A stretch of DNA of 59,930 nt, taken from the IMG/VR virus record IMGVR_UViG_3300021962_000115, positions 1 to 59,930 of that record, one strand, 5' to 3'. The position numbers and the translations under genes were made by a program. Source of the stretch: a virus (Duplodnaviria > Caudoviricetes). A model generated the notes under the pieces. That model worked only from the letters and a program-made list of their open reading frames with translations. It did no database searches and was not told the origin of the DNA. Shown one piece after another: positions 29,042-48,188 of the stretch (position 1 is its first letter; each line of letters begins with the position of its first letter).

Positions 29042-32000
29042 TGGCAAAGATTCAGAATACATCTAAAGAAGTTACTAATACATTTGTCAAGGGTCTAAAT
29101 AAAGATTCTGATCCTTCATTTGTATCAGAAGGGATGTGGATACATGCCCGCAACGCAACTAATAATACAGCAGAAGGTAACTTAGGTACTCTATCAAATG
29201 AAGCATCAAACTACTTATGTGCTTCTGTTGGAACTACTATGCCTTCATTTGGAGCAAATGCTGTAACTGATGTATATATTATTGGAGCTATTCATCTCTT
29301 TTCAGATAAATGGGTAATTTTTTCTGCAGGACATTCATTAACAGGTAAGCCTGTAATGTCTGAGATAGGATTACTAGAAGAATCAAGATGTATATATAGA
29401 CCTATTGTACAAGATTCATGTCTAGGTTTTGATAAAAGAAACCTAGTACTTGGAACATCAAGAGAAAAAGAAGACTGTTCTTGGCAAGTATACTGGGCAG
29501 ATGGTCTGAATCCAGATAGATTTCTAAATGTAGGTGATCCACAAACATGGCCTACAAGTGATTTTCAATGGCAGTTAAATACAATGCCAAATCCAACTCC
29601 TATAGCTTATTCTGCATTAGTAAATAATTATGTAAATAGTGCTGGAGATACAATACTTTGGCCTGGAGTTAGATGGATAGAAGACTGTTCAACTAATTTA
29701 AATTGTACTACATGTACAGATACTAATGAACTTGACTGTGATCATATAAGATTAGCAAGACTTGTTAGTACACCATGTCTTACAATTCAGAGAGGAGAGT
29801 CTGGAGGTAATCTAAGAAATGGAACTTACTTTGCTACTATAGCTTATGCAATAAATGGTCAGAGAGTAACTGATTATTTTTCTCCAAGTAATACTCAACC
29901 CATTTGGTTTCCAGATGATTTACAAGGATCTATTACAATCAATGTAGAAGCTGACTCTGAGAACTTTGATGAGTTTATTTTAGTTGTAGTACAAAATATT
30001 AATCAAGGTACTGTTGCAAAACAGATTGGAACATACTCAACTAAGACAACAAGTATTGAATTAGATCAAATTAAAGATGAACTAATTACAGTTCCTATAG
30101 AACAAATACCAATTATTAATCCTGTATATGAAACATCTGATCAAATGACAGATGTAAACAATTACTTGTTAAGAGTTGGTCCTAGAACTAAATTTGATTT
30201 CAACTATCAACCGCTAGCAAACTTAATTAAGACTAAATGGGTATCTGTAGAATATCCCGCAGACTATTATACTAAAGGTGGCAATAAAGGAAGTTATCTA
30301 AGAGATGAAGTATATGCTTTCTTTATCCGTTGGGTATATGATACAGGTGATAAATCTGCATCTTATCATATTCCTGGTAGACCCCCAAAAGATTATTCAT
30401 ATTTACTTACAGGAACTGCAACTACAATAACAGCTAATGAAGCTAGTAATTCTACACATGATGTAAATTCACTTACAAGTACAGATCAATTATTTGAGAT
30501 GTACAATACTGCAAATACTAATGGCATTCCCTCGCTACTAAATACTACAACTAGTGATGGAGGCACAATTATTGCAACTGGTGAAATGGGTTATTGGGAA
30601 TCTTCAGAAAGATATCCAGATAATCAACCAGAGATATGGAATCCAAGTGAGTATTGTTGGACTGGAGCAGAAGGTCATAGCAGTTATACAGATCCACAGG
30701 GAAATACAATTTATCCTAATGATCTCTGTGGTCAACATATTAGACACCATAAATTTCCAGATAACTATTTAAATAGTAAAACACTTCACTATAAACCTAG
30801 TGCATCTACTGTACCCGGGGACTCAAATAATCTTGACATAAGATTAATGGGTGTAGTATTTCAGAATATAGCATTTCCAAAAGATCAAGATGGTAATGAC
30901 ATTCCAGGAATTGTAGGTTATGAAATCTTAAGAGGTTCAAGAGAAGGTAATAGATCTATTGTTGCTAAGGGTATTCTCAACAATATGAGAACCTATAAAA
31001 TCAAGGGAGATGTAGCAAGAAATAGAACAGGACTATATCCTAACTATCCATTTAACTGTTTACAATCTCCAATGAATACTGGAACAGTTGCTGATGCAAA
31101 CTATCAGTTTAATGATCCATATATTCAACTAGATGAAAACTACTATCAATCTATTCCTGTTGAAATAAATACATTTCACTCACCAGATACAATGTTTAGA
31201 ACTCCATTCTTGGAATCTACTGAACTTAAATTATATGGTGCAGTAAGTGGATATTCAGCACAGAACTTTAAATATCCGGATGAACATCCTAAGTTTAAAC
31301 TACTTAGTGATGCTGGTATGGGATTAGCTTTACTGATTGGTTTTGCAGAAGCTCTTGTTGCTATGACAGGCAAGAAGACAATGAGACAACCTGGTGCTAG
31401 TTTTACCACACAACCTGTACAGAACTTAATTAGTGGTCCTGGTGGTGTAACTATTACAAATCCTGCAGACCCATATTATGAAGCTCCTAATCAAGTTCAA
31501 CAGCAGATTATACAAACAACTGATGTAGGTGATCCAAATGGCTTGAGTTTACCGCCAGTACCTGGTTTACCAGCTCCGTTCTTTACAAAATTAAAGAGTT
31601 ATTTTGGTAATGGAAGCATTATAACTAATGTGGTGGGGGTACCACCCTCCCAAACACTTGACCAAATATTTGAAGAATTCAACTACAATGTTGGTTTTAA
31701 AGTAGGTGGTACATTCACTGCTCCAGATATTGATGTAGAATTATCTGCAGCAACATACCTAGAATCTGCTAATAACCTATCTTTCTTTACAGCTGTAAGT
31801 AATGCACTAGGTGGTTTAAACAAGTTCTTCTATTACTTTTCTTCTGGCTCTGATGCTACATTAGAATTGATTTATGCATTCCTACCATTTGATCAGTATG
31901 CTCTTCAAATGATTGCACATGGTCTATATGATAGTTTCTTATCTCCAAATTATATTGCAAGATTAGGTGAGCCATATGTAACAAGACTTAAAATTGATGA

Positions 32001-34653
32001 TGCATTTTATATTAGAGGTAATATACAAGAAATGCCATATTATCAATCTCAGTGGCCAGCAGTTGTAAATAATAGATACTCAATAAACAATCTTAAAAGA
32101 TCTGACGCAGTTGTATTAAGAACTATGAGTGGTCCTTACTTCCAACCGGCTTATCCAGACGGAGTAGATTTAGGACCTAAGTTTATTAAAAACACAACAG
32201 GAGAGTATTATGATAAATCTCTTGTAACACTGTCCTACTTTAATAACACTGCATCTGGACAAGCTAATGCTTGGGGTAATATTGCAGGTCCATCTTTTGA
32301 TGATAGAGAAATCTCTACTCCATTCTCATTACCAATTGCTAGTCACTATGGTGCAATTAAAATTAGAAAGAGAAACTTATATGGACAATTACAATCTATT
32401 AAACAAATTGTAATTACACCATGTGAGCAGAAACTAAGTGATTCTTTCTATAATAATAAAGTTTGGCCAGAATTGTACACATGTAATGGTACGCAATACT
32501 TGATAAATTGGATAACTCAAACTCCAGTGTTCTTTGGTGGAGATACTTTTGTAAATAGATATACAGAAAAGAATTCAATGTTCTTCTTCTATGATTGGTT
32601 ATATGGCCAACCAGATGGATATGAATTTAATTATCTATTGAGACAAATGATACCAGAACCTAAATTCTGGGTCAACTCAACTAAGTATGACATCTCAGAT
32701 TTTTCAAATGTATTTACTCAGTGGTTTAATGGTGGTGGGGCTCCTGGTACAGGATGGAAACCTACAAACTTCTATCAAATGGACTTTAATAAGTTTGACT
32801 ATAGAGACAATACTGCAGGAGATTATCCAGGAATATTTAGACCAAAGGACTGTTATTTCTACTTAGCTGTTTCTTCTGTAAGAGATTTCTTTGTAGAATC
32901 AGAAGTACTTGTTGATTTTAGAATACAAGGTATTACTGAATCTGAAAAATATTATGACCCATACGGATATACTGATCTATATAGTATGTTTAATATGGAT
33001 CCACAGATTATTACAAGAGGTAATGAATATAGATATGACTATTCACTAAGTATTACTAAAGCATTTAGTCAGTACTTCTCTGCAGGAAATTTGCAGAGTA
33101 GATATTATAATCCTAGTGTTGCTAAGCTCTGCTATACATACTACCCAGATAGAATTATCTATTCTCTACCACAGCAGCAAGAGTCTTTTAAAGATAGCTG
33201 GTTTGTGTATCTAGTAAACAACTATAAAGAATTCCAGCATCAAATATCTGGTGTTAAATCTATTAATAAGAATGGTATTGTAATTACTTTTAAAAATGCT
33301 AGCCCATTAATGCATCAAGGAGTTGATACATTACAAACAGACTTAGGTACTAAAATTACAATTGGGGATGGTGGTCTATTTAGTCAACCAGGACAATCTG
33401 TAATTAATGCTGATGCATCATATGAATATGGTTCATCACAAAATAAACTATCTGTAATCTCTACTCCTGCAGGTATATATTATATATCCCAGAACCAAGC
33501 TAAGATATTTTCATTAGGTTCAGGTTTAAAAGAGATATCACAAATAGGTTTAAAATGGTGGTTTACTAATTTCCTACCATACAAGCTTACTGATGATTTT
33601 CCTGATTATCCTTATCAAGATAATCCTGTATCTGGTATTGGTTGTCAATCCTTATATGATAATGAAAACTCAATAATATACTTTTCTAAGAGAGATTATA
33701 AGTTATTGGACAAATGGAAGAGTCCATTGTTTAATGGTAAGATTCTATACATTCCACTAGTAACTTCAGGAAAAGATAAAGGAACTGGTGATTACTTTCA
33801 GATTCAAAATGCTAATGGTGTTATTCAACCTGGTATATATCAATTAGGTGATCCATTCTTATTTGAAGATGCTTCTTGGACAGTAAGTTTTGACCCTAAA
33901 AATGAATTCTGGATCTCATTTCATGACTGGCATCCTAATCTCAGTATTGGGACTAAAAGTGTTTTCTTAACCACTAAGAAAAATGGAATCTGGAAACACA
34001 ATGATGTATGCAATAGTTACTGTAACTTCTATGGGCAGTCTTATCCATTTGAAATAGAACTACCTATAATAACAGGTCAATCAGTTACTACAGTAAAATC
34101 AATTGAGTACATACTTGAATGTTATAGAAGAAAAAATAATTGTATAGATCAGTTCCATGTACTTGATTACAATTTTGATCATGCCGTTGTATACAATTCT
34201 GAACAAGTTTCTGGATACCTTAATCTAAATATTTTTCCTAAGAATAATGTTACTCTTAGTCAAACATATCCTAAACTAAATCAATCTAACTTACAATCTT
34301 TTGATATTCTATTTAGCAAAGAAGAAAACAAGTATAGATTTAATCAGTTCTGGGATATTACAAGAGACCGTGGAGAATTTCCTATTGGATCAGATTATCC
34401 ACCAACAGGACCAGTTGTTCCAGGAACTACAGTACTACAGGGTAATTATGACCAAGAATCTATCTGGTATACAGAAGCAAATGGATATAAGAGAACATTA
34501 AATCCGGTAAACTTAGATTATAATAAATCTGAACTACAAAGAAAGAAGTTTAGACATTACTTAAATTACTTAACTTTAATTAGAGAAGATAGTACAGATA
34601 CAAATATGATCTTAAAAATAGTTAATAGTAAGAACCAAATATCTCTTAGGTAA
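29041..34653 (+). CDS. tail stabilisation/muzzle protein (P22 gp10-like)
   Basis: 1870 aa beta-rich; starts with F.KGLNKD..P...WIHARN; late WTVSFDP..WISFHDW.P motif; follows ring proteins. Confidence 0.7.
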   Translation: MAKIQNTSKEVTNTFVKGLNKDSDPSFVSEGMWIHARNATNNTAEGNLGTLSNEASNYLCASVGTTMPSFGANAVTDVYIIGAIHLFSDKWVIFSAGHSLTGKPVMSEIGLLEESRCIYRPIVQDSCLGFDKRNLVLGTSREKEDCSWQVYWADGLNPDRFLNVGDPQTWPTSDFQWQLNTMPNPTPIAYSALVNNYVNSAGDTILWPGVRWIEDCSTNLNCTTCTDTNELDCDHIRLARLVSTPCLTIQRGESGGNLRNGTYFATIAYAINGQRVTDYFSPSNTQPIWFPDDLQGSITINVEADSENFDEFILVVVQNINQGTVAKQIGTYSTKTTSIELDQIKDELITVPIEQIPIINPVYETSDQMTDVNNYLLRVGPRTKFDFNYQPLANLIKTKWVSVEYPADYYTKGGNKGSYLRDEVYAFFIRWVYDTGDKSASYHIPGRPPKDYSYLLTGTATTITANEASNSTHDVNSLTSTDQLFEMYNTANTNGIPSLLNTTTSDGGTIIATGEMGYWESSERYPDNQPEIWNPSEYCWTGAEGHSSYTDPQGNTIYPNDLCGQHIRHHKFPDNYLNSKTLHYKPSASTVPGDSNNLDIRLMGVVFQNIAFPKDQDGNDIPGIVGYEILRGSREGNRSIVAKGILNNMRTYKIKGDVARNRTGLYPNYPFNCLQSPMNTGTVADANYQFNDPYIQLDENYYQSIPVEINTFHSPDTMFRTPFLESTELKLYGAVSGYSAQNFKYPDEHPKFKLLSDAGMGLALLIGFAEALVAMTGKKTMRQPGASFTTQPVQNLISGPGGVTITNPADPYYEAPNQVQQQIIQTTDVGDPNGLSLPPVPGLPAPFFTKLKSYFGNGSIITNVVGVPPSQTLDQIFEEFNYNVGFKVGGTFTAPDIDVELSAATYLESANNLSFFTAVSNALGGLNKFFYYFSSGSDATLELIYAFLPFDQYALQMIAHGLYDSFLSPNYIARLGEPYVTRLKIDDAFYIRGNIQEMPYYQSQWPAVVNNRYSINNLKRSDAVVLRTMSGPYFQPAYPDGVDLGPKFIKNTTGEYYDKSLVTLSYFNNTASGQANAWGNIAGPSFDDREISTPFSLPIASHYGAIKIRKRNLYGQLQSIKQIVITPCEQKLSDSFYNNKVWPELYTCNGTQYLINWITQTPVFFGGDTFVNRYTEKNSMFFFYDWLYGQPDGYEFNYLLRQMIPEPKFWVNSTKYDISDFSNVFTQWFNGGGAPGTGWKPTNFYQMDFNKFDYRDNTAGDYPGIFRPKDCYFYLAVSSVRDFFVESEVLVDFRIQGITESEKYYDPYGYTDLYSMFNMDPQIITRGNEYRYDYSLSITKAFSQYFSAGNLQSRYYNPSVAKLCYTYYPDRIIYSLPQQQESFKDSWFVYLVNNYKEFQHQISGVKSINKNGIVITFKNASPLMHQGVDTLQTDLGTKITIGDGGLFSQPGQSVINADASYEYGSSQNKLSVISTPAGIYYISQNQAKIFSLGSGLKEISQIGLKWWFTNFLPYKLTDDFPDYPYQDNPVSGIGCQSLYDNENSIIYFSKRDYKLLDKWKSPLFNGKILYIPLVTSGKDKGTGDYFQIQNANGVIQPGIYQLGDPFLFEDASWTVSFDPKNEFWISFHDWHPNLSIGTKSVFLTTKKNGIWKHNDVCNSYCNFYGQSYPFEIELPIITGQSVTTVKSIEYILECYRRKNNCIDQFHVLDYNFDHAVVYNSEQVSGYLNLNIFPKNNVTLSQTYPKLNQSNLQSFDILFSKEENKYRFNQFWDITRDRGEFPIGSDYPPTGPVVPGTTVLQGNYDQESIWYTEANGYKRTLNPVNLDYNKSELQRKKFRHYLNYLTLIREDSTDTNMILKIVNSKNQISLR

Positions 34654-36203
34654 TGAATAATAAGAAAGTACTCAGTAAAGCAGTTAAGAATCTTTCTAAA
34701 ACTAAGAAGGTTGCAAAACCTAAAAATATAATAGAAGATCCTAGAGGTCAGTGGGCACATCCTGGTGAGATAACCAGGATACCATCTGATACTATAACTA
34801 TGCAAGGAGTACCTTATCCTGTTATGGCATACCCTAATATAGGACAACCACAAATGATGTATCCAGGACAAGAGTACTATTTTCCAGGGGCAGCTCATGT
34901 AGATGAGTATCCACAGATGCAAGATGGAGGTATAATTTCTCAAGAAGAAATAGATGCCGCTAATAGAGCTATGATGAAAGCAAGATTAGCATATGCTCAA
35001 ATGCATGGTAATCCTGCTGCTCAAAGAATGGTGGTTGCACCAGATCAACCCTATCAGTTTGATAATGGAATGATAGGTACACACTATATGGCATCTATGG
35101 ACAATTATGCTGTACCACAAATTCAAGGTGTTGATGGACAACTAGTGCTAGGTGATTTTGGTCCAGAGTCTGCAGAAGCTATGAGATTTGATAATCCTGA
35201 AGATGCAATGTACTTTGCAGAAAATTATAAACAGATAACCCCAGATGAATCATATAGACAAGAAGAAGATGCCTATATAGAAACAGAACTTACCCCAGAA
35301 GAAATACAAGAATACGCTAAGGGGGGTTGGGTTGTAGAAGAAGTAGATGAAATTTCTGCACCAACAGATCTTGATCCAAAAACAATGGCTAAGTACAAGA
35401 AAGCACTCAAGAACCAAGAGAATGCTGGAAAGGCTGGTTACAATAAAGCACAGGATAGATGGTATCCACATGTAAGTCCAGAAGGAGGAAAGAAAACAAT
35501 TGGTTATGGACATAAGCTTACAACTAACAATTATGCTAATGGTTTATCAACAGCAGAAGTAGAAAGTTTACTTGACTCAGATATATTAAAACATCAAGCT
35601 ATTGCTGAAAAACAAGTTGATGAGCAATATGGTAAAGGAACTTTTGATAAACTTCCACAAGATTCTCAGATGCTTCTTGTAGACTATGCTTATAACCTAG
35701 GTACATTAAAAGAATTTCCAAAGTTTGTTAATGGTGTAGTTACAGGTGACAAAGAAAAAATGTTGGCTGAGCATAAAAGATATAGTGGTTCTAGTCCTAT
35801 TACTAGAAGGAACCAATGGACTGTTGATACAATAAATACTATGGATACTACTATTCCATCAAAAATAAACTTACCTGTCCCTACTAATTCTACACAAACA
35901 ACTAAATCTAATAAGGATAGATGGGGAAGATCTCCTAATACTATTTGGTATGGTTTTAATCCTGAGACTAAATTATATGAACAAAAAGGTTTGCTCTGGC
36001 CTCAATATGGAGATCCAGGCCCTGGTATTGGAGGACCACTACCAGGATCTTATATATCCCCAGGACAAAGACTAAGAGAATATCAAGAAGGATTAAAGAA
36101 ACAATCTAAAGGTGGTCAGTATAATATTGGAGATGAGGTTGAGCTTACAGAAGCTGAAGTAAAGAGATTAAGAAGTTTAGGTTATACCATTGAAAAAATC
36201 TAG
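34653..36203 (+). CDS. internal virion protein with GH24 (T4-type) lysozyme-like domain
   Basis: LKNQEN..WYPH.SPEGGKKTIGYGH..LVDYAYNLG..FPKF..RR; flanked by xxxGG motifs and LT..EI modules. Confidence 0.7.
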   Translation: MNNKKVLSKAVKNLSKTKKVAKPKNIIEDPRGQWAHPGEITRIPSDTITMQGVPYPVMAYPNIGQPQMMYPGQEYYFPGAAHVDEYPQMQDGGIISQEEIDAANRAMMKARLAYAQMHGNPAAQRMVVAPDQPYQFDNGMIGTHYMASMDNYAVPQIQGVDGQLVLGDFGPESAEAMRFDNPEDAMYFAENYKQITPDESYRQEEDAYIETELTPEEIQEYAKGGWVVEEVDEISAPTDLDPKTMAKYKKALKNQENAGKAGYNKAQDRWYPHVSPEGGKKTIGYGHKLTTNNYANGLSTAEVESLLDSDILKHQAIAEKQVDEQYGKGTFDKLPQDSQMLLVDYAYNLGTLKEFPKFVNGVVTGDKEKMLAEHKRYSGSSPITRRNQWTVDTINTMDTTIPSKINLPVPTNSTQTTKSNKDRWGRSPNTIWYGFNPETKLYEQKGLLWPQYGDPGPGIGGPLPGSYISPGQRLREYQEGLKKQSKGGQYNIGDEVELTEAEVKRLRSLGYTIEKI

Positions 36204-36205
36204 TC

Positions 36206-38314
36206 ATGGCTAAATATAGAATTACAAGTACTCCAGATGATTCTTTCAAAAAAGGTGGAGAACGTAAAAAGAAAAAGAGGAATAATGACAAAGACTACCG
36301 ACATATTCCTATAACTCCAGAAATGCAAGCAGAGATGCCTGCAGATGAGTGGGGTCAATACATTCAAGAAGTACCTGAAGTATATACTACTAGAACTAGA
36401 GAACAACAGGATATTAGAAATGCTCTTGACTATCAACAAAGAATGGCTGAATTATATCCGGGTAGACCTACTCAGTCAGATGCAATACAACCTGCTGATT
36501 GGTTTTGGCAGTTAGGTGCTCTTGGAGCAACAGGAGCTGCAGGAGATCTATTAAGTGCAGGAGAAACTTTAGGTACTAAAGCACTACCTTATATTGAAAG
36601 TGCTCTTAATACTTCAATACCTAAAATGAGTTCAATTCCTGGAGCCACTTTTGGTAATGCTATGGGAGCTTATTTTGCAGGAGATGCTATAGTTAATAGA
36701 TTATACCCATCTGCAGGTAAAATACAAGAAGGTGAATATGGTGAAGCTGCAACGGATATAGGAACAGGTTTATTAGACCTATGGGGAGCTAACATGTTAA
36801 GTCCTCTATATAAAGGAGCAAAAGCTACAGCATCTGAACTTAGTAAGTTTATAGGTGCTGAGGATTTTAGTATATTTCCTAAACAACCTATTCCGCTTGA
36901 AGGCTATGATCTATCAAAAGGAAGAGCAACTAAATCACTTATTCCTGAAGTAGTTGAAGAACAAAAAGTTATAGAGCCTTGGAGAATGCAACCTATGCCA
37001 GGATTACATTTAAAGTCTACAATGACAACTAATCCAAAAGGTTTACATACACAAGTAGCAAAAGATGGAACTATAAATGTAGAAAATGCTTTAAAATTTA
37101 TTAAAAATAATGAAGGACAAGACAAGTATAATCTAGTAACTAAAGCCTTAGGACAAAACCTACCTAAGAAAATGGACTATAATCAATTTAGAAATCTCAT
37201 ACAAAAAGAATTAGTACCATTAGAAAAAACTGTAGGTGTCCGAGATAATAGTGTATATGGTTTACAAAGACTTGGTTATACTGTTGAACAGCCTAATGTA
37301 ACTACATATTATTCAGATGGTGAAGCAAAAATTATAGAAAATCAAACTATTCTATTAGGTAATAGAAATCAATTTGGTAGGGGATCTACTGCACATGGTA
37401 ATCCTGATGAAACTTTAGGTCATATTCATTTCTTTAGAGATTCTGATACTCCAGATGCATTAACTATTTCACAAATACAATCAGATGCATTTCAAGGTAC
37501 ACATCGGTCATCAATAAGAACTAAAGAACAGGCTGAATCTTCTCTAAGAGAAACGGAAAAACATTATGAAAGATTAAAAAAATCCTTTGACCAACTTACT
37601 CTAGGACCTGATGGTTTCTATCAATTACCCGATGGACAAGTAATGCGTAAAGATATGGCTGATGCTATGCTTAAATCACAAGCAGAAACAATTAATCTAA
37701 TGAAATCAGATTTAAAAAACTTTGATCAAAGACAACTATTAGATAAAAATCATCAAGAAAGATACTTACAAGAAATTGTACAATATGCTGCAGAAAGAGG
37801 TGATGTTAACAGAATTAAATTACCTACTTCAGAAACAGCAGCTAAAATACAAAAATATTCAAAAGAGACATGGGATGATATTGAGGATTTTAGAAGCTAT
37901 ATGCAAGCAGAATATGACCTTGATCAAGCACAACAATTTGGAGACCCTGAAATTATTAAGTCAGCACAACAAAAAGTTGATAAAATTAAACAACAACAAA
38001 TAGATAGAGTACCAGATTATAGATCAAAACATAAAACTATTCTTAAAAAATATAATGAATTACCTAAAATAATTAAGAAATTATATGGTACAGAACCTAA
38101 AATAGTAACAGATAGTAAAGGTAATACGTGGTATGAACTTAATATTCCATATGAATTTAAAGAGGGACCAGCAGAAATAAAAGCATTTAAGAGTGGTGGA
38201 CAATATGCAGCTGCTCTACCACAAGAACAAGATAGAGGTATTGTCACTTCTCTAACAGATGCTGAAATCAAACAATATATAAAAGATGGTTATATTGTAG
38301 AAGAGATCAAGTGA
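36206..38314 (+). CDS. internal virion/cargo protein with a domain like those of large polyvalent phage proteins
   Basis: Gly/Ala hydrophobic stretch; H..PDETLGHIHF..LTISQIQSD and D.KGNTWYEL motifs; C-terminal LT..EI module. Confidence 0.5.
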   Translation: MAKYRITSTPDDSFKKGGERKKKKRNNDKDYRHIPITPEMQAEMPADEWGQYIQEVPEVYTTRTREQQDIRNALDYQQRMAELYPGRPTQSDAIQPADWFWQLGALGATGAAGDLLSAGETLGTKALPYIESALNTSIPKMSSIPGATFGNAMGAYFAGDAIVNRLYPSAGKIQEGEYGEAATDIGTGLLDLWGANMLSPLYKGAKATASELSKFIGAEDFSIFPKQPIPLEGYDLSKGRATKSLIPEVVEEQKVIEPWRMQPMPGLHLKSTMTTNPKGLHTQVAKDGTINVENALKFIKNNEGQDKYNLVTKALGQNLPKKMDYNQFRNLIQKELVPLEKTVGVRDNSVYGLQRLGYTVEQPNVTTYYSDGEAKIIENQTILLGNRNQFGRGSTAHGNPDETLGHIHFFRDSDTPDALTISQIQSDAFQGTHRSSIRTKEQAESSLRETEKHYERLKKSFDQLTLGPDGFYQLPDGQVMRKDMADAMLKSQAETINLMKSDLKNFDQRQLLDKNHQERYLQEIVQYAAERGDVNRIKLPTSETAAKIQKYSKETWDDIEDFRSYMQAEYDLDQAQQFGDPEIIKSAQQKVDKIKQQQIDRVPDYRSKHKTILKKYNELPKIIKKLYGTEPKIVTDSKGNTWYELNIPYEFKEGPAEIKAFKSGGQYAAALPQEQDRGIVTSLTDAEIKQYIKDGYIVEEIK

Positions 38315-38315
38315 A

Positions 38316-38336
38316 TGTAAACTAAATAAGTTTACA
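38316..38336. promoter_or_regulatory. operator-like inverted repeat TGTAAACT-N5-AGTTTACA
   Basis: Perfect 8-bp arms, intergenic, upstream of the CTATATTTAGTATATA box and gene 38379. Confidence 0.55.
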
Positions 38337-38378
38337 GTTTAAATTTTAATTTACTATATTTAGTATATACACTGTGTA

Positions 38379-41300
38379 ATGAAGAAAAAAGTAAGAATTT
38401 ATAAAGCCGAAGATGGAAAGGGGAAGTTTGTAAATAAGACTTCTAAGTTTCTTGCTAAAGCTCAAGAAGGTGGTATGCCAGATATGTCAAGGCTTACATA
38501 TCCTGGATCACAACCCACATCACAAGAAGATCAAACTTCTCAATTAATACAACTTGTTGTTAGTGATATTACTTCAAATGTTCCAAGAGAAAAGACCCTT
38601 ACAAAGTTATCTAATGTAATGGGTATTCCATTTGATAAAGCTACAGAACTTTATATGGCTATTGCTGAACAAATTACACAGCAGATTGAACAACAGGACA
38701 ACCAGGACTATGAAGAAGAAACAGGAAGTCCAAGAGAGAAAGAAGAAGCTCTTCCTGTTGATGCAGTAATTACACAAGAGCCTGAGCAAGATTATGACTA
38801 TGATCTAAATGATGATACTGGAGCTGAAATTGCAATGGCAGATTCTGGAGAGCCTGATGTACTTGATGAAGCTCTTGACCCACTAGAAGGAATGTACCAG
38901 TACGGTGGTATGACAGGAGATGAATATACCTTTGCATACCCTGAAGTAGATAATGAACAATATAATAATCAGGTGTCACAGATGGCATGGCCAGGATCAG
39001 ATGAATCTTCTGAAGAAAATCCATATGCCTCTGACTATTATGGTGATGCTATACTAGAGAATACTGGTTATGCAAAAGGTGGTTCTTATAAGAAAAGTAA
39101 AGCCAAGTATGTAAGTTCTGTAATGAAGCTTCTCAAAAAGCAAATGGGTGGAGATTCTGAAGATATACCAAACCCTAATAATGGAGATCCCACAGGTACT
39201 AACTTTAGAGAAAATAGATTAAAATCATTTACAAGTAGTGTTAAAAATACAGCGCAACAACAAGCACTTAAAGAACAACTTGAACAACAGTATGATCAAA
39301 TGATGCAAGAGGGTGGTCAATCTGGAGATTTTGAAAATCCAATGCACCACTTAAATTTATATTCTCAAGCAACTAGAGGTATATTCAATAATCCAATGAA
39401 CCAAATGGTTCAAGCCAGAAGAGGTATGAACGTTGATCCAGATCTTCCAGTGCAGAATCAAGATCTATTAAATTTACCAAGAGGATTCTCTAGAAGAACT
39501 GTAAGAAGATTTGGAAATATTCCTAATCTCAGAGAAGTTGATGTAAGAAGATCTGGTTTATTTGGTCCAAAGGAATATACAATGTACTTTGAACCATCCC
39601 CACTCCAACAAATAAGTAACCCTCTCTCGGCAGAGATATATGGTTATGGAGCAAACCAATCAGCTGCAAGAAAACAAACTAGAACTTTTGAGGCTACAAA
39701 AACATATACTAATCTTCTTGAAGACAAAGCAGAAAAAGAAGCAGAGAAAGAAGTAAAAGAACAAGTATCTGAAGAACAAAAAGCAGTAGAAGCTGCAACT
39801 CAACAAGGCAGTACAGCGCAAGGATCAACAGCACAAGGATCTAATAAGAGAACTCCTGTTAGTACTCAAAGTTATGCAGCAGAAATACAAAGAGATAAGT
39901 GGGGCAGGCCTGAAGGTGATAAGTGGTATAACTTTAATCCAGATACAAAACAATTTGAAGGTGAGTCACTACCATTCCAAAGAGTAGAAGGAAGTGATTT
40001 TTTATATGGGCGCACACCAGAAGGACAGTGGGCATATCTAAATCCTGCTGCCGCTGCATATTATCCTGTTAGTGAGGGCAGTCCTAATATGAAAGCTCTA
40101 AAAGCAGGTCAATCTAAATCTGCATCATTTGTTACTTTAGATTCTAAACCAGGATACTACTATAGAGTAAGAAATGATGGTGCATATGTAAAGTTCCAGG
40201 GGGACCCTCTAACACATACTGCAAGTACTAAACCACTTGAAGTTATTACATCAGGAGACAAGAGACATGCTTACATTAAAAAGAATGCTAAAGCTAGTTC
40301 CAATGTATTACCTGCAGTTATGTTTGGGCAGCCTTCTGCTAGTCCTAGTTCTAATAGTTTAGACATCTATAATCAGATGGTAAATAAGATGTATGGACAA
40401 CATCCTGCTCTTAAACAACTCATAACACAGCAGTATGGTGGGAATATAGAAAATCCATTTGCCAATCCAATGGAACCCCTACAAAAGTTTATAGGTGGTG
40501 GTTATGATCCTACAGAAGCTCAGATAGATTATTCAGATTCTATTGATACTTCAGATGCATATTTCCAAAGAGGTGGTAACTTTATAAAGAACTTTGTTCC
40601 CGCTAATCTTACTGATGGTAACAGACAAGCTGTTGTACAAAAGATCTATAATCCTGTAACTGGAGAGACTAGACAACAATTTGTTCCAGGTCCTGGAAAT
40701 CAACTTGCAGCAATTGATGTAAGAAAAACAGGTTTAACAGGTAGACCTAAGAAGTATACTGTTTATTATGGTGCTGCAGGTGATCCAAGATATTCTAACT
40801 TGATTACTATGGATGGAGCTAAAGGTGAATCAGGTAAAAAAGCTTCTGGTAATAAAACTACATCAAGTAAATCTGAAAGACAACAAGCACTAGAAAATGC
40901 TGGATATGGTGATAGAACTGATGTAACTGGTCTTAAAGGTAAATCTAAAAGAGCAATTAGACAGGGAGAAAGACAAAGAGATAGAGATCTTAAAAAACTC
41001 TATAAAGAAGATCCTACTAATGTAGAGTTTGAAAAAACTAATATCAATGCTCCATATGATTACCAGATAGAGCAACCTATGCAGATCAGGAGTGCACAAG
41101 ATGAACTAAACAAACTTATCAAACAAGGTCCAGAACAACTAGTAACACAAAAACAAATTGATGATCTTAGATCTCAAGTTAACATGGACTGGTTTCCGCA
41201 GAAGGACAAAGAGTTGGATGATTATTTTATGGATCTATTTAATAATCATAAGGAATATAGAGATCTTGCCATAGAAAATAATTTTAAGGATCCTGATGGA

Positions 41301-43034
41301 AAGACTACAGATCAAGAAAGAAACATAGAAAGAGCTTCGACACTTATACCTAATTATGATTTAGATTGGGTCTTCTCTAATACAAAATCAGATGATATCA
41401 ATAAACGTTATGATCTTAATGTAGATCCAAATAACCTTCTAGATCCTAGACTCCAAGTTGAAGGTATAGATGCAAACAGAAGAGTAGAAGATTGGTACAG
41501 AAAACCCAAAGAAGTATCTGATGATCCAATGCTTCAAGATAATGGGGATGATGCGGCATGGGGACTACCAACTTCACCAGAAGAAAGAGAAGCGGCTGCT
41601 GCAGCTGCACTACAGGATAATGTTGCATATGAACTTCCTCAGGGAGACTATAATGAAGATTCTGGATGGGGTGAAGTAGGTGCTAGATCTTTCCAAGATT
41701 ATGTACCAGGAATTGGACCAGCTGCGGATGAAACAGATCAATTTCCTTCATTTGAAGAACAATACCTACAAGAAGGTTATCAACCTGCATATTCACAAGA
41801 TATGCTTGATAGAGCATCTGGTTTAAGAATGGCCCAACCTGAGCAACCAATGACTGATATGGGTGCATGGTCAGGTATGGGATCTTCAGCAGATATAGTT
41901 TCTCCTGGTGTAAATCCATTTGAGCTACCTACAATGATTGATCCAGGTGGAATACCTAGGTACTTAAATGACTACTACTCACCATTTGAGCAGCCAACAA
42001 GATCTGCAAGACCTACTGCACCTACTGCACCTACTCTAAACCAACTCAGAGCACAACAGCAATCTAGACCAAACGCAAATAAACAATACACTTATAATGT
42101 AGATACGTCTGGTGCTACTAAAGATTCAGACTATATTGCTGCAATGCAAAGAGCTCGTCAAGATGGTGTAGTTACAAATGCAGAAGCAAATGCTGCACTA
42201 AGAGGTTATAAGCAGAAGATAGCTGAAAAGGAAAAAATTAAAGTTGCATCACAAGCTCAGAGAACTATTGATCAAATTATGAATAGTAGTTCTTCTAAAT
42301 CTGAAAAGATAGCGGCTAGAGATAAAGTTCTTGCTCAACTGCAACAGAGATTTGAGATAATTGATAATAGTGTAGGTAGCCGCAAATATGGTGGTGCACT
42401 GAGTAGATTTGTAGATGGTGGTAATAACCAACCCTTTACAGGTGAAAACCCTGTGGCTTATACAAACAATCCTATGATGCAAGGTAAATCTGATTTAGAT
42501 CTTATCACTCTCAATCAAGGTATACAAGGAGCACAAGGATCAGTGAACTGGGGCAGTATGGCTTCAAATCCTGCAAATGCAACATATACAGGTGCACAAC
42601 CAGAACAATATAAAATTGATCCAAATCAAAGAGAAGAGTATCAAGTTGCTAAAACTTATTCTGAACCAATGGCTGTTGATATTAAAGTTCCTATGTCACA
42701 AGCACAAAGAGAAGCTAGTTTAATTACAGGTAATGCACTTATGAGAGGTGTAACTGGTATCAAGAATAGAAGAACAGATGCTCAACAAATGGAAGGTTTC
42801 TATGATAATTTCAGTGCTGATAATCTTTATGCTTCAGATCCAAGTAGAGACCGTGGAGACTATGCAGAATCAGGACTATATAGACCAGATGAACAAGGTC
42901 AAGTATGGAACAGTAGATCTGCTCAATACGGTGGTTATATAGATGATGACTTTGAAGATGGAGAAGAAGTTTATATGACTGATGAAGAGATCAAAGAGTA
43001 CATGGCAAATGGTGGCCAAATAGAATTTATTTAA
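38379..43034 (+). CDS. large low-complexity internal virion/ejection protein
   Basis: 1551 aa, Cys-free as read, Q/D/E/P-rich, about a dozen xxxGG motifs. Confidence 0.6.
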   Translation: MKKKVRIYKAEDGKGKFVNKTSKFLAKAQEGGMPDMSRLTYPGSQPTSQEDQTSQLIQLVVSDITSNVPREKTLTKLSNVMGIPFDKATELYMAIAEQITQQIEQQDNQDYEEETGSPREKEEALPVDAVITQEPEQDYDYDLNDDTGAEIAMADSGEPDVLDEALDPLEGMYQYGGMTGDEYTFAYPEVDNEQYNNQVSQMAWPGSDESSEENPYASDYYGDAILENTGYAKGGSYKKSKAKYVSSVMKLLKKQMGGDSEDIPNPNNGDPTGTNFRENRLKSFTSSVKNTAQQQALKEQLEQQYDQMMQEGGQSGDFENPMHHLNLYSQATRGIFNNPMNQMVQARRGMNVDPDLPVQNQDLLNLPRGFSRRTVRRFGNIPNLREVDVRRSGLFGPKEYTMYFEPSPLQQISNPLSAEIYGYGANQSAARKQTRTFEATKTYTNLLEDKAEKEAEKEVKEQVSEEQKAVEAATQQGSTAQGSTAQGSNKRTPVSTQSYAAEIQRDKWGRPEGDKWYNFNPDTKQFEGESLPFQRVEGSDFLYGRTPEGQWAYLNPAAAAYYPVSEGSPNMKALKAGQSKSASFVTLDSKPGYYYRVRNDGAYVKFQGDPLTHTASTKPLEVITSGDKRHAYIKKNAKASSNVLPAVMFGQPSASPSSNSLDIYNQMVNKMYGQHPALKQLITQQYGGNIENPFANPMEPLQKFIGGGYDPTEAQIDYSDSIDTSDAYFQRGGNFIKNFVPANLTDGNRQAVVQKIYNPVTGETRQQFVPGPGNQLAAIDVRKTGLTGRPKKYTVYYGAAGDPRYSNLITMDGAKGESGKKASGNKTTSSKSERQQALENAGYGDRTDVTGLKGKSKRAIRQGERQRDRDLKKLYKEDPTNVEFEKTNINAPYDYQIEQPMQIRSAQDELNKLIKQGPEQLVTQKQIDDLRSQVNMDWFPQKDKELDDYFMDLFNNHKEYRDLAIENNFKDPDGKTTDQERNIERASTLIPNYDLDWVFSNTKSDDINKRYDLNVDPNNLLDPRLQVEGIDANRRVEDWYRKPKEVSDDPMLQDNGDDAAWGLPTSPEEREAAAAAALQDNVAYELPQGDYNEDSGWGEVGARSFQDYVPGIGPAADETDQFPSFEEQYLQEGYQPAYSQDMLDRASGLRMAQPEQPMTDMGAWSGMGSSADIVSPGVNPFELPTMIDPGGIPRYLNDYYSPFEQPTRSARPTAPTAPTLNQLRAQQQSRPNANKQYTYNVDTSGATKDSDYIAAMQRARQDGVVTNAEANAALRGYKQKIAEKEKIKVASQAQRTIDQIMNSSSSKSEKIAARDKVLAQLQQRFEIIDNSVGSRKYGGALSRFVDGGNNQPFTGENPVAYTNNPMMQGKSDLDLITLNQGIQGAQGSVNWGSMASNPANATYTGAQPEQYKIDPNQREEYQVAKTYSEPMAVDIKVPMSQAQREASLITGNALMRGVTGIKNRRTDAQQMEGFYDNFSADNLYASDPSRDRGDYAESGLYRPDEQGQVWNSRSAQYGGYIDDDFEDGEEVYMTDEEIKEYMANGGQIEFI

Positions 43035-43043
43035 CTTTATATC

Positions 43044-45215
43044 ATGTTAAGAAAAGTAAGAATTATTAAGTCAGCTCCTAAAGCAAGAACCGGGTACCAA
43101 GTACAAGGTTCTCTTGCTAATGATGTACCTGCATTTGGTGGAGCAGACTATAATGCCTACATAGGAACCCCTAATCCTGAAGTATCTAAAACTATTACTG
43201 CAGTACCTAGAAGTATTGCAAACTTAGAAGCTGAAGGTGGAGAGACTGTAGTAGGTAATCTTGATGGTAGTAAGATGCCTTCATTTAAAACTATTAAGGG
43301 ACCAAGGCATTCTAATGGTGGTGTACCACTTTTATTACCTGAAGATAGTTTTATCTTTAGTGATACTAAATCTATGAAGATTACAGATCCAAAAATGTTA
43401 AGCATGTTTGGACTATCTCCTAAGAAAGGTGGGTATACTCCTGCAGAGATATCTAAAAGATATGATATAAACAACTATAGAAAAATTCTTCAAGATCCTA
43501 ATTCTGATCACATTTCTAGAAAGACAGCAGAGATGATGATTAAGAACTATGTAATGAAACTTGGAGCTCTTGCTATTGCTCAAGAATCTAAGAAAGCATT
43601 TCCACAGGGAATACCTTTAATTGCAAGACCTTATATGGAAGCTATGGGACTTAGAGATGAAGATCTTATACCAGAGCTTGCACAAGAGGAACAGCAAGAA
43701 AGTGCGCAGTATGAGCAACAAGAAACACCACAATATGAGCAAGAAGAGATGATGTCTCAGGAGATGCCAATGGGTGAGTACGGTATGTCATTAGGTGCAG
43801 GTATGTCTCAAAACTACATGGGTCGTAAAAGAAGAATGTATGCTTATGGAGGTGATCTACCTATTGCTGAAGATGGCACACCAAGACCTAAAACAGCTAC
43901 AAAAGTAGATCCAGAAGCTTACAAGAAGAGTACCTGGGAAACCAGAAGTGATGCACAAGGTGAGTACAAGTACAATCAAACAAGAGGTCAAGTAGAAGGT
44001 AGAAAAGAATACGATAGACAACAAGCACCATCTGGAGGTTCTAATCCTAATCTAATTTCTGATCTATGTAGAAATATGAAAACTAAGGGTAGTAGACACT
44101 ATGGTAAAACTGCTGAGGAAGTTCTTGCATATGCTGGATATAAACCGGGTTCATCCCTATATAGTAAACACTTGGTTACTCTTAAAGCTTGTGAACAAAA
44201 AGGTGAAGTGATTGAAGAGCAAGCTATTTATACAGAACAACCACCATCAACAGATTGTCCATGTAAAGATAAAGATGGAAATGTAATACCTGGTAAGTTT
44301 GCAAAGAGAGATGAGAATGGTAAATGTCTTCCTTGTCTAGAAGAATGTGAATGTAAAAAATCTGATGGTTCTACATATACTGTTGGTAAAGATGCTAATG
44401 GTAATTGTGAGAAATGTGAAGAAGAAATTGATACAGAAACAAATACTGTAGTAGATACACCGCAATCAGATCCTGAATGGTGGTTACAAGATACTGTAAA
44501 TGCTGCAGGTGCTTTTGGTGATCTAATGAGTGTTAGAAAACAAATGCCATGGGAAGCAAGAGTTGATCTTGAAGAACCAAGACCTACATTCTTAGATATT
44601 ACATCAGAAGCAAATCAATTAAATGCATTAGCTAATGTTAATGCTCAAGCTTTAGCTAGTACAGCTAGTCCTCAAACTACTGCTGTAAATTTATTAGCAA
44701 ATCAAGGTAAATTAGCGGATCAAGTTGCAGCAATGCAATCTAGATATAACAATCAAAATGTAAATATTGCTAATCAATTTGAAGGAACACAAGTTGGTAT
44801 CAGAAACCAAGAACAACTTATGAACCAACAAATGTCTAATAGACTCTATGATAAGAATGTTATTGCAAATCAGCAATTCCAAAATGCTAAACGTCAGGGA
44901 AGAGCTAACATGGCACAAGCATACAATACTGCAGTAACTAATAAATGGAAAGCAGATGCTGAGAACCAACTTAGAGAAGATGTTAAACTACATCCTGGAG
45001 TAGGTGGTAGAGTAGAGATGCAACCAACTGCTAAGAACCCACAAGCTACTAAGCCAGAAATGACAATGGAAGAATTTTATGAAGCTAATAAGGGAATGCC
45101 TGAAGGAGTACTTAAAGAAATGATGAGAATTAAGTATGGTAAGAAGTATGGTGGACCTACTAGTTTTAGAGATGGAGGCTATATTTATACAGTCTTTCCA
45201 ATTGTAACACTCTAG
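43044..45215 (+). CDS. internal virion/ejection protein
   Basis: EAEGGETV..GPRHSNGGV..IFSD motif seen in phage virion proteins; Q/N/A-rich helical C-terminus. Confidence 0.6.
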   Translation: MLRKVRIIKSAPKARTGYQVQGSLANDVPAFGGADYNAYIGTPNPEVSKTITAVPRSIANLEAEGGETVVGNLDGSKMPSFKTIKGPRHSNGGVPLLLPEDSFIFSDTKSMKITDPKMLSMFGLSPKKGGYTPAEISKRYDINNYRKILQDPNSDHISRKTAEMMIKNYVMKLGALAIAQESKKAFPQGIPLIARPYMEAMGLRDEDLIPELAQEEQQESAQYEQQETPQYEQEEMMSQEMPMGEYGMSLGAGMSQNYMGRKRRMYAYGGDLPIAEDGTPRPKTATKVDPEAYKKSTWETRSDAQGEYKYNQTRGQVEGRKEYDRQQAPSGGSNPNLISDLCRNMKTKGSRHYGKTAEEVLAYAGYKPGSSLYSKHLVTLKACEQKGEVIEEQAIYTEQPPSTDCPCKDKDGNVIPGKFAKRDENGKCLPCLEECECKKSDGSTYTVGKDANGNCEKCEEEIDTETNTVVDTPQSDPEWWLQDTVNAAGAFGDLMSVRKQMPWEARVDLEEPRPTFLDITSEANQLNALANVNAQALASTASPQTTAVNLLANQGKLADQVAAMQSRYNNQNVNIANQFEGTQVGIRNQEQLMNQQMSNRLYDKNVIANQQFQNAKRQGRANMAQAYNTAVTNKWKADAENQLREDVKLHPGVGGRVEMQPTAKNPQATKPEMTMEEFYEANKGMPEGVLKEMMRIKYGKKYGGPTSFRDGGYIYTVFPIVTL

Positions 45216-45281: not shown

Positions 45282-48188
45282 ATGGCAACCTACTTACAGG
45301 GAGTTACAGATTACATACCACAGTTTCAACCGTTTCAACCGGATCTGAACTTCTATGATAATGTAATGCAAACAAAGCAGACCCAGTATGATAATAACTG
45401 GAAAGCTTTGAATACTATGTATAGTAAATACTACTATGCTGATCTCACACGTGATAACAATGTTAAAGCAAGGGATTCTTTCATTAAAGATGCTCAGTTT
45501 AACTTAAAGAGAATCTCTCAGTTAGATCTATCTCTTGAACAAAATGTTCAACAAGCAGCTCAAGTATTTAGACCGTTCTATGAAAACCAAGACCTAATGA
45601 AAGATATGGCTTGGACAAAAACTAAGAACACTGAACTTGCAGCAGCAGATAGTTTTAGAAAATCTCTTGATCCTGAAATGAATAAAAAGTACTGGGATAC
45701 AGGAGTACGTGAAATTAATTATCTAACAGAAGAATTTAAGAATGCTACTAATGAAGAAGCATTAGGCTTTAGTAATGTAAGATATACGCCAAATATAGAT
45801 ATCATGGGCAGAGCTCAGGAAATTGCAAAAGAATTTGGTGACATTCAAACTGTTAAGTTTACTGAAGATAAGAGATGGATTGTAAAGACTAAGAATGGAG
45901 AACAACTTGAAGAACCACTTCAAAAGTTATTTGAAGCTAGATTAGGTAATGATCCATCTGTACAATCATACTTTAAAACACAAGCATACGTTCAGAGAAA
46001 GGACTATGCTATGGCAAATGCTGCACAATTCAATGGTGATAAAAATGCTGCTGAAATGAAATACCTTCAAGATAAGTTTAATATCATGAAGATTCAAAAT
46101 CAGAATGCTTACAAACAAATGAAGGAGCAGAATGCTGTATATGATAATAAGATAGCAGATATCCAATCTCAAATAGATAAGGGTAATAAAGATCCACTTC
46201 TACAAAAAGCACTGGATCAATATACTATGAACAAGGATATCAATAATGAAGTACTAACTAGGATTGAAAAAGAGAATGCTTTGATGGAAACAAATCAAGC
46301 AGATCCAAATAATCCTTATGGTGATATCCAATCATTTAGATACAAAGTTGATTCAGGTGTTGCATCTCAACTAATGAGCAAATCTTTGGGTGAAGCAGCT
46401 CACACATATGCATTTAGAAACTATTTTGAAGATCTTGATGCTAATCCATATCAAGTTAACCAAGAGAAGTTCCAACAGAATATGGCTCTTGCTAATCAAA
46501 AATATCAAAATGATAGAAAGCTTGCTGAATATAAAGCTGGCCTAAAAGAAAAACTTGATGATAGAAAGTACAAACTTGATGCTGGTACACACTTCTTAAA
46601 TGAAAAAGGTGAACTAGTTGAGAAGTTTGATCAAAATCACTTCTTTACTGAATCTAATGACTCAGGTACAGCAACTGATAAAACAAATGTAAGATCTACA
46701 GCTGAGTATGTACAAAAGAGATATACAGAAAACTATGCTAGTCCATACTTTCAGACTATGATGAGAGTTCTTACTGAAGCTACTGATAGTGATACAGGAA
46801 AGAAATTAACTCAAAAACAGATCAACTATATTATAAATGGTGATGAGAATAAGTACGCTGATTTAAATAGATGGGCTAATAAGATACAAACAAATGCCAA
46901 TTCATTCCTTACTGATAAAGTTGGTGAAGGTTGGATGAAAGCTATTAACTATAGATTTAAAAACTTTGTGGCTCAGAATCCACAATTAACTACTATTAAA
47001 GATAATCAAGAAGCCCTAGCTACAACAGCAACTAAGTTTGATGACTATTTATTATTCTTAGGTGAGAGTAAGAAGTTTGAGAAAACTCTTACATCTGGTG
47101 TAGAAAAAGAACTTGCAAAACAAGGATTTAAGCATGCTAAGTACTTGTATGATGAAAATGGTAATATAAGAAGTAAAGAAGCATTTTTTAGAGCTCTACC
47201 AAAAGGTGCAAATCTAGATGCTGAAGGAAAAACTTCAGGAACACCCTTATATGTAAGTAGTGGTTCTCCATTAACAATGGGAACATCTGGTGATACATAT
47301 GTTAGTGTACCAAAGAATTACTATGAAAATCTTATAAGTGCTGCAAGATCTATTGTAACAGATCAAAATAAAGTATCTAAAATTACAGGAAGACAATCTA
47401 TACCAGGATTAGAAAAAATATCTGATGGTACAGGTATGTTTGGAAAATCAATGTTTACAACAGTTAATCCAAAAAGTTCTTGGGGTACTTATCACTATGG
47501 ACAAGTATTAAATAACTTAAGATCACAAGACTTAGGTTCTAATAATGTTAAGATTAGTGTAGGTGGTCTGAGTGTTACCGGATTAAAAAATAGTTTATCT
47601 GATGAACAAGGTCTAGCATTTCTACGAGAACTACAAAGAGAAATGGATAAAGGCACCAAAGGGTTTAACTTCAAAATGGGAGTCGCACCTATTGCTCTAA
47701 ATAATGCAAATAAATCAGCGTACATATTCCAGGTTTCACCTGACTTAATCAAAAGTCTTACAGGTAAACTTGATGATGATGGTAATCTTACAGGAGGTAT
47801 ATTTACTCCAACACAGGCATCAGAAGTTATGACAAATGGTGTATCATTTATAATGGACAAAAATATGTTCAATTCTGATATGTATAACAGTATGTTTGCT
47901 GATCCATTAGCTGCTTATGTAGATAGAAATAAAAAGTATAGTTGGTCTGATCCTGTAGATCCAAGATATACAATTAATATTAGTAAATCTGGAATTGGAG
48001 GAGATGGTAGCTATCAAATAGATAATTCAATGCCAGTATTTGATGAAAAAACAAATACATGGACAGTTGCTAGCTTTACTAATATTGTAGATAATGCTAA
48101 ACAAAATTTAAGTGATCTTAGAGATTCAACAATCCAACAAGGTAATCAAGTAAAACTTTATAACAATAACCTCCTTAATGGCTACTGA
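45282..48188 (+). CDS. large virion/ejection protein
   Basis: 968 aa; N-terminal FQPFQPDLNFY..VM..KQ.QYD and helical N-half; first of three giant genes as in crAss-like phages. Confidence 0.55.
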   Translation: MATYLQGVTDYIPQFQPFQPDLNFYDNVMQTKQTQYDNNWKALNTMYSKYYYADLTRDNNVKARDSFIKDAQFNLKRISQLDLSLEQNVQQAAQVFRPFYENQDLMKDMAWTKTKNTELAAADSFRKSLDPEMNKKYWDTGVREINYLTEEFKNATNEEALGFSNVRYTPNIDIMGRAQEIAKEFGDIQTVKFTEDKRWIVKTKNGEQLEEPLQKLFEARLGNDPSVQSYFKTQAYVQRKDYAMANAAQFNGDKNAAEMKYLQDKFNIMKIQNQNAYKQMKEQNAVYDNKIADIQSQIDKGNKDPLLQKALDQYTMNKDINNEVLTRIEKENALMETNQADPNNPYGDIQSFRYKVDSGVASQLMSKSLGEAAHTYAFRNYFEDLDANPYQVNQEKFQQNMALANQKYQNDRKLAEYKAGLKEKLDDRKYKLDAGTHFLNEKGELVEKFDQNHFFTESNDSGTATDKTNVRSTAEYVQKRYTENYASPYFQTMMRVLTEATDSDTGKKLTQKQINYIINGDENKYADLNRWANKIQTNANSFLTDKVGEGWMKAINYRFKNFVAQNPQLTTIKDNQEALATTATKFDDYLLFLGESKKFEKTLTSGVEKELAKQGFKHAKYLYDENGNIRSKEAFFRALPKGANLDAEGKTSGTPLYVSSGSPLTMGTSGDTYVSVPKNYYENLISAARSIVTDQNKVSKITGRQSIPGLEKISDGTGMFGKSMFTTVNPKSSWGTYHYGQVLNNLRSQDLGSNNVKISVGGLSVTGLKNSLSDEQGLAFLRELQREMDKGTKGFNFKMGVAPIALNNANKSAYIFQVSPDLIKSLTGKLDDDGNLTGGIFTPTQASEVMTNGVSFIMDKNMFNSDMYNSMFADPLAAYVDRNKKYSWSDPVDPRYTINISKSGIGGDGSYQIDNSMPVFDEKTNTWTVASFTNIVDNAKQNLSDLRDSTIQQGNQVKLYNNNLLNGY

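Follow-up and report, generated by a model that had tools for sequence, protein, structure and literature searches.

Successive subunits of polyketide synthases (PKS) and non-ribosomal peptide synthetases (NRPS) carry docking domains, short C-terminal and N-terminal elements that are encoded in order and are dispensable on fusion, and in chaperone-usher pili an N-terminal donor strand with alternating hydrophobic residues joins pilins, Ig-like folds missing one strand, into an ordered linear chain. Here we analyze a pair of protein ends, an acidic C-terminal module and a basic N-terminal head, encoded by consecutive cargo genes of a crassvirus contig, the IMG/VR record IMGVR_UViG_3300021962_000115; the window is this whole record of 59,930 bp, the completeness of which is estimated at about 50%. 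The cargo genes, named A to D, are the next four genes on the + strand after that for the muzzle protein. On the basis of sequence comparison, the explanation that appears best to us, although we rate it at slightly less than an even chance, is a non-covalent tail-to-head clasp that would join the cargo proteins in gene order.

In phiCrAss001, the cargo protein gp45 is encoded after the muzzle protein and ahead of gp46 and the polymerase-associated proteins; according to the structure paper, a single gp45 chain spans the tail barrel and a portal-bound domain inside the capsid, residues 425-552 being bound to the portal (PMC10172136). The study suggests that cargo-cargo interactions may set the order of ejection (Bayfield et al. 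2023, PMC10172136), and the loading of several megadaltons of protein cargo, together with its ordered release, is a question that it raises for crassviruses. If end tags chain the cargo, they would offer a testable mechanism, a route for adding enzymes to the ejected set and a tool for packaging chosen proteins.

Paired ends of the cargo proteins in the window and its relatives

A first-pass annotation, made from the letters of the window, had described an acidic module of ~22 amino acids (aa) that closes A, B and C, with one extra copy inside A, and a basic N-terminal strand that opens B, C and D (MAKYRITS, MKKKVRIYK and MLRKVRIIK, respectively). All the tag sequences that it quoted were found where it had placed them: A ends in EVELTEAEVKRLRSLGYTIEKI, B in VTSLTDAEIKQYIKDGYIVEEIK and C in EVYMTDEEIKEYMANGGQIEFI, D has no module, and A lacks a strand-type head; the N-terminus of A (MNNKKVLSKAVK) is also Lys-rich, yet lies outside the strand motif. 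A hidden Markov model (HMM) of the module, built from five copies (four from the window and one from the related locus L001), retrieves the four window copies at domain E-values of 8 × 10−15 to 2 × 10−13, whereas no further module was detected with it in window open reading frames (ORFs) of at least 80 aa, the next best match having E = 0.13. Given this separation, the module is not a chance resemblance. The two kinds of ends carry opposite charges: the mean net charge of the last 24 aa is −5.6 in 109 distinct module tails compared to +0.8 in other C-termini (a set that contains some ORFs cut by locus ends), and that of the first 10 aa is +4.1 in 77 distinct heads compared to +0.6 in other N-termini.

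Relatives were collected from IMG/VR with four queries, namely D (8 loci), the module alignment (27 loci), the first 70 aa of D (286 stretches, of which the best 80 were used) and the first 70 aa of C (49 loci; here the head itself is the search pattern, so that its presence is presupposed). Relatives of D are encoded on at least 286 viral-contig stretches, and related loci keep the order muzzle - A - (B) - C - D - 'MATY...' gene. When A and D were compared with 50,697 phage records by tblastn, the lysozyme domain of A was the only match and D had none, so no close cultured relative was found among these records. Heads of the type MAK[YF][RK]IT also open the B genes of five related loci (L010, L011, L150, L160 and L163).

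The junction between C and D could be parsed in 76 of the 80 loci found with D (50 distinct junctions); one locus had no upstream ORF, and three that the junction pattern missed proved to have standard junctions. In 47 of the 50 distinct cases the junction is standard, with a C tail ANGGxxE[FY][IL] and a D start M..(K)VRIKK, and in the other three both the C tail and the D head deviate. Across all genes, 353 distinct junctions were scored automatically as 96 with module and head, 16 with module only, 21 with head only and 220 with neither. Inspection by eye revealed heads missed by the pattern in all 16 'module only' junctions and module variants missed by the profile in 10 of the 21 'head only' junctions, which gives corrected numbers of 122, 0, 11 and 220, respectively. 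The expectation that module-ending genes are followed by strand-starting genes in related viruses was thus borne out (122 junctions vs. 0 exceptions). None of the 33 distinct complete chains opens with a protein that has a head or closes with one that has a module, and in all of them modules are at least as numerous as heads.

The two elements differ in their placement. Head motifs are N-terminal in 138 cases and internal in none (695 distinct proteins), whereas the best 120 of 317 database matches to the module contain 277 copies, of which 174 are internal; in 103 of these 120 proteins a copy nevertheless lies within 5 aa of the C-terminus, despite widely differing enzyme content. Internal modules are typically preceded by (Y)QxGG and then followed by LPKAQxG or SVPxLxQAQKG, never by a strand. 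A P-x-A-[QRK]-x-G motif also follows the heads of B and D; by virtue of this shared context, a split junction resembles an internal junction to which 'stop - Met - basic strand' has been added after the module. The A-type relatives are mosaics in which SET methyltransferase, GH24 lysozyme, SLT, Amidase_2, VanY and YkuD domains stand between modules, and one of them, as small as 183 aa (L155, 9391-9942), consists of a SET domain and a module.

Fusions, splits and conservation of the ends

In five loci (L150, L152, L160, L161 and L165), C and D form a single protein, and both the module and the strand are absent at the joint. The distance from 'YGG' of C to 'PKARTG' of D is 43 aa in the window, made up of 32 aa of C tail that hold the 24-aa module and 11 aa of D N-terminus that hold the head strand, vs. 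about 8 aa in the L150 fusion. In a tree of the D domain, the fused forms cluster, with one split form (L034, on a long branch) weakly nested among them. The A/B pair is a case in the opposite direction. The nearest relatives in the D tree, L001 and L044, have one large A protein in place of the pair; residues 1-250 of the window A match residues 1-311 of the single large A protein, residues 66-220 of B match residues 412-561 of the single large A of L120 (54% identity), and the gap between these two matches holds the lysozyme domain, the terminal module of A, the stop codon and the B head together. Judging from these alignments, what is one A protein in the nearest relatives is split into A and B in the window. 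Finally, in a variant clade (L084, L105, L116 and L143-L158) that has a single origin in the D-domain tree, both ends are altered, the C tail reading ...DFQxLIKLAGL(N)K(K) and the D heads, for example, MNKKLNKL. The fusions, the A/B split and the variant clade fit a pair of elements that is needed only at chain breaks.

Conservation of the C tail is exerted at the protein level. Among 49 distinct standard tails (1176 pairs), the two codons of the Gly-Gly pair show 615 and 666 synonymous differences and 0 non-synonymous differences; the Thr and Ala positions follow the same pattern, and synonymous change is saturated across the module. The invariance of these residues despite saturated synonymous sites indicates selection on the protein. 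A separate, nucleotide-level element lies upstream of C, where a hairpin adjoining the upstream stop codon is followed by an AT-rich box (AATTTAnTATATTTAGTATATA). Both are also present in the 45 of 60 distinct related regions upstream of C that were inspected, similar boxes occur at 24710-24723 and 26717-26730, before the window genes at 24741 and 26743, and the window contains 8 matches to the box at no more than 2 mismatches vs. 3.2 expected; hairpin and box are, possibly, a terminator plus a phage promoter. An 'alternative tail' KLxKF[IT]x of the gene before C (L016, L089, L091 and L151) was discarded as a candidate protein tag: it is the intergenic hairpin read in frame where the upstream ORF extends into it.

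The module had been proposed to adopt a beta-alpha-beta fold, which AlphaFold2 did not reproduce: the last 70 aa of C (12-row alignment) were modelled as a helix at DEEIKEYMA, with a predicted local distance difference test (pLDDT) of about 70-75 and unpaired flanks. Residues from about 46 to 215 of D form a confident domain (first 290 aa, 51-row alignment), preceded by residues 1-40, to which almost no secondary structure is assigned and whose 10-residue blocks average a pLDDT of 49-61. In these models the head of D is flexible in front of a folded domain and the module does not fold back on itself, both of which would suit an element that depends on a partner. Prediction of a complex between the last 70 aa of C and the first 70 aa of D (12-row alignments) scored 0.24 and 0.17, with the mark at 0.32, and speaks neither for nor against binding.

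The cargo block and its relation to gp45

The window is a crassvirus by its capsid, ring and muzzle families: the Crassvirales virion module is present in order, from the major capsid protein through tail rings 2 and 1 to the muzzle, with all Pfam scores above the curated cut-off (Table 1). The cargo block resembles gp45 in lying right behind the muzzle gene and ahead of gene E, which is gp46-like by eye; in having basic N-termini, such as MAKKKIKRRGK in phiCrAss001; and in recurring aromatic-x-x-Gly-Gly motifs. It differs in that the single gp45 chain has 842 aa, whereas A to D amount to 3492 aa across four genes, and the acidic module was not detectable in 7 gut gp45 homologues. The aromatic/Gln-x-x-Gly-Gly motif (AQYGG, MYAYGG, FAEGGG) is found in A to D as well as in the module-less gut homologues (L166-L172). 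The enrichment of Gly-Gly is modest: C has 14 pairs vs. 9.3 expected (reached in 37 of 500 shuffles) and D has 9 vs. 4.4 (7 of 500), and by the same test A and B are not enriched.

Some comparisons weakly link the folded N-domain of D to the portal-bound part of gp45. With VIA-align, this domain matched residues 437-548 of 7qog_M at rank 6 (Z = 5.0, root-mean-square deviation 3.8, 86 aligned residues, 23% identity); the identity is the highest listed, yet the Z score is tied with those of unrelated helical proteins. We infer that 7qog_M is gp45 from the residue range, which falls within the portal-bound segment; the hit title names the portal assembly only. In hhalign, residues 99-183 of D aligned with gp45 residues 473-543 when seven homologues were included (E = 0.011 in a single comparison, probability 3.9%), and the D profile against gp45 alone gave E = 0.12. 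The short motifs M[FY]AYGGD and D-x-[FY]-[IV]-F-S-D are common to D and gp45 by eye. There was no significant BLASTP match between D and gp45 (best E = 0.85), no gp45 match of the D profile among PDB sequences, no Foldseek match of the D model in the PDB at E ≤ 0.001, and no significant hhalign match between the N-region of A and the gp45 homologues (E = 0.55); sequence searches of solved structures with the module profile, A, D and the D profile returned nothing meaningful. A portal-binding domain in D is, in our view, a moderately strong lead. Should it be correct, D would be the portal anchor of the cargo set, and, as the gp45 thread spans the tail barrel to the portal, a split version would need connectors to attain the same topology.

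Table 1 Features of the window and of the cargo block (positions in the window; module scores from the module HMM).
Feature	Position	Strand	Remarks
Crass_capsid	14897-16513		Pfam 108 bits, cut-off 27
CrAss_Ring_2	27321-27983		Pfam 92 bits, cut-off 27
CrAss_Ring_1	27983-29041		Pfam 40.6 bits, cut-off 27
Muzzle protein gene	29041-34653	+	1870 aa; Pfam crAss_MUZ, E = 3 × 10−26, 92.3 bits, cut-off 27; directly 5' of the cargo block
Cargo A	34653-36203	+	516 aa; no strand-type head; N-region conserved, lysozyme domain between the internal and the C-terminal module
A internal module	35274-35345	+	aa 208-231, YIETELTPEEIQEYAKGGWVVEEV; score 43.6
A C-terminal module	36129-36200	+	aa 493-516, 'RLRSLGYTIEKI' subtype; score 41.6
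Cargo B	36206-38314	+	702 aa; begins with the basic head and ends in the module; hydrophobic stretch rich in Gly/Ala at about aa 98-220
B head	36206-36229	+	MAKYRITS; begins 2 nt after the A stop codon
B C-terminal module	38237-38308	+	aa 678-701; score 46.0
Intergenic element before C	38315-38378	+	hairpin GTAAAC (38317-38322)/GTTTAC (38330-38335), then AT-rich box 38347-38369
Cargo C	38379-43034	+	1551 aa; long, fast-evolving body between the basic head and the C-terminal module
C head	38379-38405	+	MKKKVRIYK
C C-terminal module	42960-43031	+	aa 1528-1551, 'ANGGxxE[FY][IL]' subtype; score 42.1
Cargo D	43044-45215	+	723 aa; module-less; behind the basic head, a PKARTGYQ motif, the folded N-domain and a C-part rich in Asn/Gln
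D head	43044-43070	+	MLRKVRIIK; begins 9 nt after the C stop codon
D folded N-domain	43179-43688	+	aa 46-215; pLDDT >90; weak likeness to the gp45 portal-bound domain
Gene E	45282-48188	+	968 aa; neither tag; head MATYLQGVTDYIPQFQPF

Within the block, the lysozyme domain of A occupies residues 278-376 (Pfam Phage_lysozyme, 24 bits vs. a cut-off of 22.3). B matched no Pfam or PHROG family; its Gly/Ala-rich stretch is similar in composition to a gp45 region annotated as transmembrane, and a structure search of the ESM Atlas gave weak GNAT acetyltransferase leads, under the bar, for residues from about 236 to 650. Compared to 13 distant C proteins, the N- and C-termini are the best conserved parts of C. 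By eye, the head of E is similar to the way in which gp46 (cargo protein 2) homologues begin (MANFSFVSGAKFRPFSY), which suggests that E is the gp46 counterpart. Further downstream, a 2226-aa protein (48178-54858) with a PHROG exonuclease match at residues 1803-2007 (E = 2.9 × 10−12) and no Pfam family occupies the position where phiCrAss001 has giant polymerase-associated proteins. Two neighbouring proteins (22824-24707 and 24741-26375), also without a Pfam family, have Cys-rich ends (e.g. ...CGCNTGCNCGGSCGGNCGCSSTGRTCQS).

Explanations of the paired ends and comparison with known systems

Under a clasp, A to D would fill the slot that is held in phiCrAss001 by the single gp45 ('C1') after the muzzle gene. 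The acidic module, in which a Thr/Ser-capped helix comes after a short extended segment and before Gly-Gly and a short hydrophobic-acidic segment, would clasp the basic amphipathic strand of the next protein and stand in for the peptide bond where the thread-like cargo is divided into polypeptides. The pieces would be held in gene order, D sitting at the portal and the cell-wall enzymes of A leading. Binding as such, the topology of the chain in the virion and an ordered ejection are putative, and the proposal that the lysozyme leaves first in an ordered ejection derives from gene order and from the published account of phiCrAss001 (PMC10172136). The docking interpretation of the first-pass annotation is favoured by the chain grammar, the N-terminal strands, the fusions and the split, and the opposite charges; its binding step is putative and its fold was not reproduced. 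An extended version, which we consider doubtful but conceivable, is that of a 'virtual polyprotein', in which a gp45-like thread running from portal to muzzle would be cut into two to four genes and re-joined after translation by clasps that fix the ejection order. If so, cargo enzymes such as lysozyme, amidase, VanY or SET could be swapped or inserted by moving a module-stop-head cassette, and the tags would be a portable system of natural origin by which chosen proteins are loaded into a phage particle.

Several observations weigh against the clasp. Internal modules, usually followed by the LPKAQxG-type motif, are never found beside a strand, which implies that the module has some role that needs neither a free end nor a strand. 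At 11 distinct junctions, a normal head follows a gene without a terminal module; the upstream genes there end in amidase-type tails, hairpin-encoded tails or other sequences, and all of the inspected upstream proteins with module-less tails retain internal modules. One head type follows several tail types, so that there is no strict cognate code, and gut gp45 homologues have similar basic heads right after the muzzle gene with no module. The association of module and head at junctions is mostly a matter of shared ancestry and conserved gene order, not of 122 independent events, and the C-D fusions and the variant clade may each stem from a single event. Furthermore, no more than about 100 nt of DNA separate the tail from the head, such that one recombination can alter both, and the fusions, the A/B split and the variant clade also fit 'one N-tag + one C-end per polypeptide'. 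A rule by which the tail subtype strictly predicts the subtype of the next head was tried and dropped; the A tail of L127 (QLRKQGYVIELI), for instance, is 'before-B'-like and precedes C, and one head goes with several tails.

Some of these points are what would be expected if head and module were independent tags, each read by a third component (portal, ring, muzzle, scaffold or chaperone) during loading into the procapsid or tail or during ejection, an explanation that we hold to be rather unlikely, albeit the main rival and worthy of serious attention. N-terminal capsid-targeting sequences of T4 internal proteins and C-terminal cargo-loading peptides of encapsulins would be parallels. A fused protein would need only one N-tag and one C-end, as in the C-D fusions, and heads would be free to persist at the 11 junctions that lack an upstream terminal module and in the gut gp45 homologues; 12 copies of gp45 segments are reported to bind the portal wing and the ring proteins in phiCrAss001 (PMC10172136), and the modelled N-domain of D may be a portal binder. 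Left unexplained by independent tags, however, are the headless first and module-less last proteins of 33 of 33 chains, the opposite charges of neighbouring ends and the constant succession of module then head (122 vs. 0).

It appears quite improbable that the ends are domain punctuation, with the module acting as a spacer or hinge between the enzyme domains of a long cargo, and the heads being conserved family starts; such a module might ease unfolding and tail passage or mark processing sites, and would be C-terminal since gene breaks fall at domain borders. This would account for the majority of copies being internal, for the variety of domains parted by modules (SET, lysozyme, SLT, amidase, VanY and YkuD) and for the internal module of A, which comes out as a clean insertion/deletion when A is aligned with its L117 homologue. 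Other genes here also have conserved N-termini (e.g. MATYLQGVTDYI), and a 'beads-on-a-string' build has been proposed to help ejection of the N4 polymerase (PMC13434306). Punctuation does not, however, predict strictly N-terminal heads, their unusual charge or the loss of both elements in fusions, and no protease family was found in Pfam scans of the window, which covers only about half a genome. A signal in the nucleic acid, where the junctions would reflect translational coupling, ribosome loading or terminators, is very improbable: the hairpin and AT-rich box before C, the KLxKF... tail that is a translated hairpin and the short gaps of conserved length (1-2 nt between A and B, 8-10 nt between C and D) are in keeping with it, but the saturated synonymous sites and invariant key residues largely refute it for the module, and modules are also found deep inside genes.

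Even if a third partner reads them, the tags would mark a loading signal, conserved and as yet undescribed, that a large group of environmental crassviruses shares. No published description of the end tags was found in a literature search covering few subscription journals. The last 23 profile positions of DUF7210 (PF23843), which is not mentioned in the literature searched, align with the C-terminal module of A at 23.5 bits, compared to a gathering threshold of 27, and the other 7 of 8 module copies were unmatched; one of the database matches to the module profile carries DUF7210. Pfam scans of module pieces at E up to 10 returned no docking-domain family.

Among known systems, the ejection proteins of N4 and DEV are similar in that very large, loosely connected cargo encoded by consecutive genes passes a narrow tail channel, and differ in that the passages describing them mention no terminal connector tags (PMC13434306, PMC11445570). 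In T4-type capsid targeting, a prohead protease removes a short N-terminal signal; the heads are N-terminal too, and among the proteins of the window, about half a genome, no protease family was found. The likeness to chaperone-usher pili lies in the next protein's N-terminal strand, in which hydrophobic residues alternate, and in the ordered linear chain, whereas the acceptor here is predicted to be a helix-containing module of ~22 aa and not an Ig-like fold. Compared to PKS and NRPS docking, virion cargo takes the place of assembly-line enzymes and binding is putative; in both, an upstream C-terminal element is paired with a downstream N-terminal element, and in the window's relatives both elements are absent from the C-D fusions, perhaps through one evolutionary event.

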